Source: Escherichia coli (GTDB lineage Bacteria > Pseudomonadota > Gammaproteobacteria > Enterobacterales > Enterobacteriaceae). From it: a stretch of DNA of 23,209 nt. Shown here one piece after another: positions 13,051 to 18,388 of the stretch. The notes below the pieces were generated by a model. It was not told the origin of the DNA. It saw nothing but the letters and a program-made list of their open reading frames with translations, and searched no databases. The translations under genes were made by a program, and so were the position numbers. The stretch is taken from the NCBI RefSeq assembly GCF_003334355.1, contig NZ_QOWP01000045.1; one strand, 5' to 3'. Position 1 is the stretch's first letter, and every line of letters begins with the position of its first letter.

Positions 13051-13500
13051 TTAAAATGAGCGTCTGGCTACCAACCAGGCGCCAACCACAAGTAAAATTG
13101 CGCCACAAATTGGGCCGAACAACGCCCGTAGTGGTACGCCATGACTGCGGAAGATATCCAGAACCAGACCGCCAATCAGCTGACTGGCGACCAGTACTGC
13201 AATAGTTGTCGCCGCTCCCACATTCTGATATCCGCTGATACTGGCGAAGACAAAAAACGATCCCAGCAAGCCAGGTATAAGTGTCCACCAGCGCACGCTG
13301 GACACCAGTTCGCCAAACCCCGCCATGCCTTGTTTAAACCATAAAATAGAAACAAAGAGCACAATCCCCACCAGTGAGTTCAGCAACATGGCGATGAGAA
13401 TGGTAGAGGAGGTCTGGGTGATGCGCACCATCAGCGTGTTCTGGACAACCAGACCAATTCCGGCGGCAATCAAAAAAGCAAGGGTGAGCGACTGATTCAT
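13051..13500 (-). CDS. ydcZ: Inner membrane protein (DUF606-type), 149 aa
   Basis: Minus-strand hydrophobic ORF. Its ATG (13500-13498) overlaps the mnaT stop (ATGA overlap), implying a mnaT-ydcZ operon. Its stop abuts the ydcY stop with zero intergenic spacing. Confidence 0.8.
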   Translation of the reverse strand: MNQSLTLAFLIAAGIGLVVQNTLMVRITQTSSTILIAMLLNSLVGIVLFVSILWFKQGMAGFGELVSSVRWWTLIPGLLGSFFVFASISGYQNVGAATTIAVLVASQLIGGLVLDIFRSHGVPLRALFGPICGAILLVVGAWLVARRSF

Positions 13501-14015
13501 CCAATCGCGTCCGGTTCAGTGCGCTCGTCGAGTTGCAACTGCATAAATGTCAGATCCAGCCAACGACCAAATTTAGTGCCTACCTGCGGCATTTGCGCGG
13601 TGACGACAAATCCCAGCGACTGGTGGAGATGCAGCGAGGCCTGATTTTGCGATTCGATCCCGGCGACCATGACATGCTTCCCGCAATCCCGCGCTTCATC
13701 AATCAATCGGCTTAACAATTTACGCCCCAGACCTTTGCCCTGATGATCGGGATGGACATAAACCGAATGTTCCACGGTATGGCGAAAACCATCGAAACTA
13801 CGCCAGTCGCCAAACGAGGCATATCCCGTCACTACGCCGTTTTCCTCGCTCACCAGCACTGGATAACCTGCTAAAGTCCGCGCTTCAAACCAGGCAATGC
13901 GGTTATCAGCATCCACCGTTTGGTCATTCCAGATAGCCGCCGTATACAACACGGCGTGGTTATAAATTTCCGCAATGGCAGCACAGTCGGCTTTGCGGGC
14001 AAAACGGATGGACAT
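13497..14015 (-). CDS. mnaT: GNAT-family N-acyltransferase (L-amino-acid / methionine N-acyltransferase), 172 aa
   Basis: Start placed at minus-strand ATG 14015 (MSIRFARKADCAAIAEIYNH...) with GAGG RBS. GNAT acetyl-CoA motif region (HQGKGLGRKLL) present. The track ORF extends a further 78 codons upstream into the divergent region with no RBS. Confidence 0.85.
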   Translation of the reverse strand: MSIRFARKADCAAIAEIYNHAVLYTAAIWNDQTVDADNRIAWFEARTLAGYPVLVSEENGVVTGYASFGDWRSFDGFRHTVEHSVYVHPDHQGKGLGRKLLSRLIDEARDCGKHVMVAGIESQNQASLHLHQSLGFVVTAQMPQVGTKFGRWLDLTFMQLQLDERTEPDAIG

Positions 14016-14195
14016 GTCTGGCCTCAATAAAATAATGATGATGATGTTATCAATACTATCGAAAACAGCCCGAAGCAACGGATTCCTCGATGAAATTATT
14101 GCGTGTTGCAGAGGGGATGTGACGGCTGCAAACAAAACCAATCCCGTGAGCCTGCTACTATTGATGGATTCATGCCAAAAGCACAGGAGAGCATT

Positions 14196-15233
14196 ATGGG
14201 GCAACAAAAGCAGCGTAATCGACGTTGGGTTCTGGCCTCGCGTCCACATGGCGCACCGGTTCCGGAGAATTTCCGTCTTGAAGAAGATGATGTCGCCACA
14301 CCGGGTGAAGGACAGGTGTTACTGCGCACAGTTTATTTGTCCCTGGACCCGTATATGCGTGGACGTATGAGCGATGAGCCATCTTATTCACCGCCTGTTG
14401 ATATTGGCGGCGTGATGGTCGGCGGTACGGTGAGCCGTGTCGTGGAGTCGAATCATCCTGATTATCAGTCTGGCGACTGGGTGCTGGGCTACAGTGGATG
14501 GCAAGACTATGACATATCCAGTGGTGATGATCTGGTGAAACTTGGCGATCATCCGCAAAATCCATCGTGGTCGCTGGGTGTGCTAGGGATGCCAGGCTTT
14601 ACCGCTTATATGGGCCTACTGGATATCGGTCAGCCTAAAGAGGGCGAAACGTTGGTGGTAGCTGCGGCGACAGGACCAGTGGGGGCGACGGTGGGGCAAA
14701 TCGGTAAACTTAAAGGTTGCAGAGTGGTGGGGGTAGCCGGTGGCGCGGAAAAATGCCGCCATGCTACCGAGGTGTTAGGCTTCGATGTTTGTCTTGATCA
14801 CCACGCGGATGATTTTGCCGAACAACTGGCGAAAGCGTGCCCAAAAGGTATTGATATCTATTATGAAAACGTGGGCGGTAAGGTATTCGATGCGGTGCTA
14901 CCGTTACTTAATACATCTGCGCGCATTCCCGTCTGCGGATTAGTGAGCAGCTATAACGCTACAGAGCTACCACCCGGTCCGGATCGTTTACCTCTGTTGA
15001 TGGCTACAGTGCTGAAAAAACGTATTCGCTTGCAAGGTTTTATTATCGCTCAGGATTATGGTCACCGCATCCATGAGTTTCAGAGGGAGATGGGGCAATG
15101 GGTGAAAGAGGATAAAATCCACTACCGCGAAGAAATTACTGACGGTTTAGAGAATGCGCCACAGACGTTTATCGGCCTGCTGAAGGGTAAAAACTTCGGC
15201 AAAGTGGTGATCCGCGTGGCGGGTGATGATTAA
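14196..15233 (+). CDS. curA: NADPH-dependent medium-chain reductase (curcumin/dihydrocurcumin reductase, leukotriene B4 dehydrogenase-like), 345 aa
   Basis: Start at ATG 14196 (MGQQKQRNRRW...) preceded by AGGAGA (14185-14190). Rossmann motif AAATGPVGATVGQIGK present. Track ORF start at 14103 is rejected. Confidence 0.85.
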   Translation: MGQQKQRNRRWVLASRPHGAPVPENFRLEEDDVATPGEGQVLLRTVYLSLDPYMRGRMSDEPSYSPPVDIGGVMVGGTVSRVVESNHPDYQSGDWVLGYSGWQDYDISSGDDLVKLGDHPQNPSWSLGVLGMPGFTAYMGLLDIGQPKEGETLVVAAATGPVGATVGQIGKLKGCRVVGVAGGAEKCRHATEVLGFDVCLDHHADDFAEQLAKACPKGIDIYYENVGGKVFDAVLPLLNTSARIPVCGLVSSYNATELPPGPDRLPLLMATVLKKRIRLQGFIIAQDYGHRIHEFQREMGQWVKEDKIHYREEITDGLENAPQTFIGLLKGKNFGKVVIRVAGDD

Positions 15234-18367: not shown

Positions 18368-18388
18368 GAGAAAATAATGATTACCATT
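18368..18388. promoter_or_regulatory. Fur-box-like AT-rich motif (GAGAAAATAATGATTACCATT) in the yncD/yncE divergent promoter region
   Basis: Resembles the Fur consensus GATAATGATAATCATTATC (hexamer-like ATAATG/ATTACC). Located between a TonB-dependent receptor gene and yncE. Regulation is inferred, not demonstrated by sequence. Confidence 0.4.

Follow-up and report, generated by a model that had tools for sequence, protein, structure and literature searches.

The intergenic region between the divergent genes mnaT (yncA/mddA) and curA (yncB) of Escherichia coli contains a short AT-rich run built around tandem ATG/GAT triplets, which raises the question of whether this run is a binding site for a regulator, in particular a metalloregulator of the Fur type, or part of an ordinary promoter. 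We examined it within a stretch of E. coli DNA of 23,209 nucleotides (hereafter, the window), in which the intergenic region (14016-14195, 180 bp) is identical to that of K-12 MG1655 and positions convert to NC_000913.3 coordinates by addition of 1504831. The product of mnaT is a methionine sulfoximine/sulfone acetyltransferase. We conclude that the run is, with high probability, the initiation region of the mnaT-ydcZ mRNA, whose promoter lies in the stump of a lost regulator gene, and that it occupies the position of that regulator's presumed former operator. The features on which this reading rests are collected in Table 1.

Table 1. Features of the mnaT/curA locus and of the related regulator genes (window positions unless a locus is named)
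Feature	Position	Strand	Details
mnaT (yncA/mddA) CDS	13497-14015	-	start codon 14013-14015
Promoter-like TGGACA-N16-AATAAT	14009-14036	+	matches the lost regulator's promoter in position; neither TSS map lists a start for it
mnaT 5' leader AUCAUCAUUAUUUUAUUGAGGCCAGAC	14016-14042	-	27 nt, AU-rich; from the TSS maps
mnaT Shine-Dalgarno GAGG	14022-14025	-	about 6-7 nt before ATG; conserved across Enterobacteriaceae
AT-rich run AATAAAATAATGATGATGATGTTATCAATA	14026-14055	.	30-mer; 17% G+C
(ATG)4, (CAT)4 on mnaT strand	14035-14046	.	inside the run
mnaT-ydcZ operon TSS	14042	-	A inside the ATG repeat; two published TSS maps agree to the base
Remnant, first 12 codons of lost regulator gene	14048-14083	+	36-nt alignment; holds mnaT -10 and -35
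Inferred mnaT -10 TATTGA	14050-14055	-	3/6 to TATAAT; ends 8 nt before +1; from TSS position
Inferred mnaT -35 TTGCTT	14073-14078	-	3/6 match; 17-bp spacer
Probable remnant, 3' end of regulator gene	14121-14150	+	weak similarity
curA extended -10 TGcTACTAT	14153-14161	+	conserved in Citrobacter
curA TSS	14167	+	SMRT-Cappable-seq 1518998 forward (PMC6131387); 29-nt leader
curA (yncB) CDS	14196-15233	+	ATG at 14196
191-aa regulator gene, examples	L004:1888-2463; L026:1778-2353	-; -	plus about 50 other loci

The run was found exactly where the earlier note had placed it: it starts 10 bp from the mnaT ATG and ends 140 bp before the curA ATG. Its G+C content is 17%, whereas the intergenic region has 44% and the window 50%. 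Locally, this composition is unusual, because 30-mers with five or fewer G/C form only 10 clusters in the 23 kb, 8 of them beyond position 22000, in an AT-rich block around yncG/yncH (22000-22860). The (ATG)4 is the sole non-homopolymer trinucleotide repeated four times in the window, and a first-order Markov simulation gave 0.08 such repeats expected per window, with at least one in 5% of simulated windows. The repeat is thus mildly unusual for the window, yet several are expected per genome, and at genome scale it is statistically nothing extraordinary.

Two independent published maps of transcription start sites (TSSs) place the start of mnaT inside the repeat. In SMRT-Cappable-seq, the b1448|b1447 operon starts at 1518873 on the reverse strand (PMC6131387, supplement 4), and Kim et al. 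(2012) report for yncA a 27-nt 5'UTR and a TSS at the old coordinate 1516897(-) (PMC3415461, supplement 2), with an upstream sequence ending in ...TTTTCGATAGTATTGATAACATCA (PMC3415461). Both starts convert to window position 14042, and the coordinates can be regarded as calibrated, because other TSSs of the same table within the window have -10 boxes at the canonical distance. Measured back from this start, the -10 and -35 hexamers of mnaT would be TATTGA and TTGCTT, and the resulting TTGCTT-N17-TATTGA-N7-A has the correct spacing to +1, with hexamers that match the consensus at 3/6 and 3/6 and were not called by a consensus promoter scanner. The counterpart of the -10 is TATTCA in E. albertii and Citrobacter, and that of the -35 is TTGATT in most relatives and TTGACA in Pseudescherichia vulneris. 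On the mnaT strand, the order is TATTGA, TAACATC, A(+1) and UCAUCAUUAUUUUAUU, then GAGG and ATG; the run comprises the -10, the discriminator, +1 and the first 17 nt of the 27-nt leader. The suggestion that it might be the "mnaT promoter -10/UP region" was therefore right as to the -10, with the TSS lying inside the repeat, and wrong as to the UP element, because the run lies downstream of the -35 and spans -10 to +17. The promoter mapping that the earlier note called for exists in published form for both genes, at 14042 (-) for mnaT and 14167 (+) for curA, and the run is an ordinary promoter, TSS and leader that are already mapped.

The leader was predicted to be unpaired up to the Shine-Dalgarno sequence, with a fold no better than that of shuffled sequences (z -0.29). 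No Rfam match at E<=1 was obtained for the leader or the E. coli region, and neither inverted nor direct repeats were detected by a search of the E. coli mnaT/curA region. Expression of mnaT is moderate under standard conditions. We infer that, apart from being an AU-rich, unstructured leader, the run serves no sequence-specific function. A text search of the literature on the regulation of mnaT/yncA/curA/yncB yielded nothing relevant.

Several other promoter assignments were tried and discarded. Neither TSS data set supports the scanner matches TGGACA-N16-AATAAT on the plus strand and GTCACA-N17-AATAAT on the minus strand (-10 at 14100..14095). A TTGATA-N18-TATTGA on the mnaT strand, with the run as its spacer, would produce a leaderless mRNA, and was rejected in view of the 27-nt leader in both TSS maps. 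The mnaT frame is also open upstream across the whole intergenic region (13497-14249, minus strand), forming a mechanical ORF of 250 aa in which the run encodes IIIII; nothing indicates that it is in use, its upstream ATG being located before the TSS. In strain WP4-W18-ESBL-08, an IS1 element is inserted at 14068/14069 (L088:363-379), between the inferred mnaT -10 and -35. A ChIP-exo peak of YidZ, a candidate LysR-type factor, was reported at 13961-14007 with a signal-to-noise ratio of 40 and the flag "bound by RNAP" (PMC8464067, Dataset S4, old coordinates 1516816-1516862). This peak is within the first 55 nt of mnaT and 19 bp from the run.

The earlier note had compared the run to a Fur-like array of NATWAT-type hexamers, and an operator of this kind, for Fur or another metalloregulator, would make mnaT and/or curA metal-responsive. 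The resemblance is real: the run matches GATAATGATAATCATTATC at 13/19 positions (14031-14049) and (NATWAT)3 at 12/15. It is also weak, being equalled or beaten at 12-15 window positions: 15 positions reach at least 13/19 against the Fur 19-mer, so that the run's score is equalled or beaten at 14 others, and its (NATWAT)3 score is matched or exceeded at 12. The scan used a general 19-bp consensus rather than a curated PWM. It works, because its best match in the window (15/19 at 18373-18391, in the pqqU(yncD)/yncE intergenic region) is a genuine Fur site and serves as a positive control: it coincides with the yncE TSS region at 18395 and with a Fur ChIP-exo peak in the published list (PMC10164565). 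Consensus scans of the window for Zur, MntR and NikR gave background-level matches only, and the regulator scans as a whole, including that for Fur, detected nothing above chance at the run.

Occupancy and expression data agree with this result. The binding data that we inspected comprised Fur ChIP-exo and one paper's lists for uncharacterised or candidate transcription factors. In the Fur pan-regulon study, the MG1655 ChIP-exo list passes from a ydcM peak straight to yncD and yncE (PMC10164565, supplement 3), and the lists for both MG1655 and W3110 include peaks at yncD/yncE and none at mnaT/curA (PMC10164565). Deletion of fur changed mnaT by log2 0.22 (p 0.13) in MG1655 and -0.41 in W3110; curA was slightly up in MG1655 (log2 0.61), which would favour a Fur effect, but changed in the opposite direction in W3110 (-0.68), whereas yncE rose by log2 3.1 and 8.1, respectively (PMC10164565). 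Across species, moreover, the triplet run is restricted to Escherichia, with indels even in E. albertii, and is absent from the other orthologous regions. With a chance-level score, no ChIP-exo peak, Fur-independent mnaT expression and no conservation outside Escherichia, that is, with neither a site nor conservation, the Fur-like reading is rejected, and we regard a metalloregulator operator here as extremely improbable.

Comparison with other Enterobacteriaceae suggested where the run comes from. A scan with MnaT recovered 80 loci. Escherichia, Salmonella, Pseudescherichia, Siccibacter and one genome labelled Enterobacter have the curA start about 130-260 bp away from mnaT, and in 50+ other enterobacterial species the distance is 670-800 bp or more. 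The wider gap in these 50+ species holds a gene of 191 aa that diverges from mnaT and immediately precedes curA; its product has HTH_3 and Cupin_2 domains. The protein fell below all NCBIfam cut-offs, and look-ups in NCBIfam, the PDB and cluster names gave only generic XRE/HTH labels; its sole structural relatives come from structural genomics, and it is 31% identical to SutR, which is encoded elsewhere in the window. In K. pneumoniae, the regulator is KPN_01914, which is skipped in a published table of E. coli orthologues (PMC3415461). The gene has no E. coli orthologue.

What E. coli retains is a scar. Its intergenic region aligns strongly to the regulator-curA spacer of relatives, and about 500 bp of the ancestral arrangement are missing between the aligned parts, which include the first 12 codons of the regulator gene and, probably, a piece of its 3' end. 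The start codon of the stump has changed from ATG to ATC in E. coli; it is intact in E. albertii, which otherwise shares the scar. Stumps of the 5' end are kept in each of the regulator-less lineages Escherichia, Salmonella, Pseudescherichia and the genome labelled Enterobacter, as seen at L003, L014, L017, L021 and L051, upstream of position 2501. The deletion end points differ among the stumps of Salmonella, Pseudescherichia and L051, and independent deletions of the regulator are therefore indicated. TTGNNN-N17/18-TATTSA was kept across regulator-less lineages with these different end points, and in P. vulneris the deletion junction itself supplies a perfect TTGACA. Such retention suggests that the stump survives as the carrier of the mnaT promoter. 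In species with the regulator, coding constraint confounds the conservation of TTGATT/TATTCA. The regulator ATG of relatives is not preceded by a Shine-Dalgarno sequence, and about 8 nt separate it from the end of a TATAGT box; the regulator mRNA may therefore be leaderless.

Between E. coli and Citrobacter, the extended -10, TSS and 29-nt leader of curA (14153-14195) hardly vary, although in Citrobacter they follow directly after the regulator stop codon. As they are conserved despite the regulator gene upstream, the curA promoter is independent of that gene; and as curA has its own TSS and its own conserved extended -10, the run lies outside the curA promoter. Homology to the window ends about 67 nt into curA (window position ~14263) in Nissle 1917, JJ1886 and strains like them, in which the next annotated gene encodes a GntR-family regulator (mcbR), so that curA appears to have been deleted in this lineage.

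The regulator-bearing Enterobacteriaceae have an invariant palindrome, ACTATAGTG, just upstream of mnaT, where the sequence before the mnaT Shine-Dalgarno reads ...ATAGTATTCAT-ATyGTAATACTATAGTGAACA.... Within 60 nt upstream of mnaT, ACTATAGTG was exact in 47/57 regulator-bearing loci and had one mismatch in the remaining 10/57, and it was exact in 0/7 regulator-less enterics. Among 33 species that have the compact arrangement it does not vary, while third-codon positions of mnaT vary freely. In Enterobacter, Klebsiella and Leclercia, in which the spacer is about 150 bp, the palindrome module is duplicated, with one copy beside each gene. Counted from the homologous mnaT start, the motif occupies +2 to +11. 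The overall pattern resembles the operator of an autoregulated repressor, and on sequence grounds we infer ACTATAGTG to be the candidate operator of the 191-aa regulator. When the two species are aligned at the -10, TATTGTAATACTATAGTGAACAAGCCC of Citrobacter (27 nt) stands opposite TAACATCATCATCATTATTTTAT of E. coli (23 nt); the run is therefore exactly at the position of the former candidate operator. It was also considered as an XRE-cupin operator in its own right and rejected as such: the palindrome is gone, the best match to ACTATAGTG in the E. coli mnaT/curA region having 3 mismatches and lying at another position, and the regulator is reduced to a 12-codon stump.

Within E. coli, the run is largely stable. 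The intergenic region is present, with the same length, in 5414/5426 complete genomes, and 4559/5415 E. coli records (84%) carry an exact copy of the K-12 40-mer that surrounds the repeat; because of the latter, the run may be under some constraint. Sampled variants carry ATGATGATGACG or (ATG)5, so that the repeat number is 3-5 units, including (ATG)3+ACG, and E. albertii has a 4-nt indel within the run. This variation is low-level slippage and substitution and not that of a hypervariable tract. The strain-specific unit number, together with a TSS inside the repeat, so that copy number alters the leader length, could point to a contingency (phase-variation-like) simple sequence repeat (SSR) that would tune mnaT expression through its copy number. 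With 3-5 units, however, the tract falls well short of those with a useful rate of slippage, the 40-mer is identical in most records, and 3-nt steps within an untranslated leader have no obvious on/off effect, all of which makes this reading very unlikely.

Other explanations attach the run to the plus strand or to DNA architecture. As the -10 and start region of the promoter-like TGGACA-N16-AATAAT, the run could be a relic of the lost regulator's promoter that still fires into the gene stump and toward curA. This match is the best to the consensus in the region (10/12) and corresponds in position to TTGAAC-N16-TATAGT, the inferred promoter of the Citrobacter regulator, which lies about 8 nt before the regulator ATG; yet neither TSS data set has a plus-strand start near 14043, and curA starts elsewhere, at 14167, from its own conserved extended -10. 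We consider a firing relic unlikely, although it would be compatible with the initiation of mnaT in the same sequence and does not exclude it. A triplet frame on the same strand, open from 13975 to 14370 and passing through the repeat, would let the ATGs begin a small protein, MMMMLSILSK.... This frame is a purely mechanical ORF listing that overlaps curA out of frame and has neither a Shine-Dalgarno sequence nor a plus-strand TSS, and it is disturbed by the indel of E. albertii and by ACG in place of the fourth ATG in some strains, so that such a protein has next to no probability.

A very AT-rich 30-mer amid 50% G+C, with the IHF-consensus core WATCAA at 14048-14053, might also be expected to bind nucleoid-associated proteins (H-NS, Fis, IHF), to be curved, or to modulate the divergent promoters in the manner of an UP element. 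The position argues against the last, as the run is 110 bp upstream of the curA start and downstream of the mnaT -35, and the 3' TTR element of an IHF site is missing. No nucleoid-protein binding at the run appears in the data sets examined (Fur and candidate-factor ChIP-exo), and the sequence is not conserved beyond Escherichia. This possibility, too, seems to us distinctly unlikely.

The reading of the run as the mnaT-ydcZ initiation region at a lost operator's position can be put as a sequence of events. Loss of the regulator in the Escherichia lineage would have lifted the constraint on the operator, and the former operator would then have drifted into an AT-rich, slippage-prone sequence of low complexity. 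RNA polymerase would use the weak sigma-70-type promoter TTGCTT-N17-TATTGA within the 12-codon stump, and mnaT would as a result be expressed from an unregulated promoter. Regulator and palindrome are present together in relatives and were lost together. It is conceivable, if rather unlikely, that after this joint loss the AU-rich leader was selected for constitutive and efficient expression of mnaT, with (ATG)3-5 fine-tuning leader length and output from strain to strain; this presupposes that the regulator of other Enterobacteriaceae controls mnaT, and probably curA too.

These results close a false lead: there is no metalloregulator site, and the odd sequence belongs to a promoter and leader that have been mapped. 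What is mildly new is confined to the evolutionary scar, in which low-complexity sequence now fills the operator position of a lost XRE-cupin regulator. Most Enterobacteriaceae have a regulator gene between mnaT and curA, and E. coli and Salmonella, which lack it, are atypical. This XRE-HTH/cupin regulator is directly testable, because its candidate operator ACTATAGTG is sharply defined. Repeated independent deletions that spared about the first 12 codons (fewer in P. vulneris) are of interest as a case in which an embedded promoter would constrain how a neighbouring gene is lost.

Four known systems offer themselves for comparison. With a Fur box, the run shares AT-richness, hexamers containing GAT/ATG and 13/19 identity, but it differs in lacking an above-chance score, in vivo occupancy, Fur-dependent expression and cross-species conservation. 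With SSR contingency loci, it shares a trinucleotide repeat at the mnaT start and copy-number polymorphism among strains, whereas its tract is very short, with one dominant allele and no evidence of switching. Divergent modules of XRE-HTH and cupin regulators, such as the E. coli paralogues SutR/YdcN and PuuR and proteins of the PDB 1y9q type, resemble the arrangement in relatives, in which the palindrome between the divergent regulator gene and mnaT has the typical architecture of an autoregulated repressor; in E. coli, both regulator and palindrome are gone, and the run is a replacement and not an operator. The run also resembles an ordinary sigma-70 promoter with a short AU-rich leader, as mnaT has a mapped +1, a 27-nt leader, a Shine-Dalgarno sequence and putative weak boxes with a 17-bp spacer. 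It departs from that model in hexamers that match at only 3/6 positions each, and in the setting of the promoter, which lies inside the stump of a deleted gene and has its +1 inside a trinucleotide repeat.
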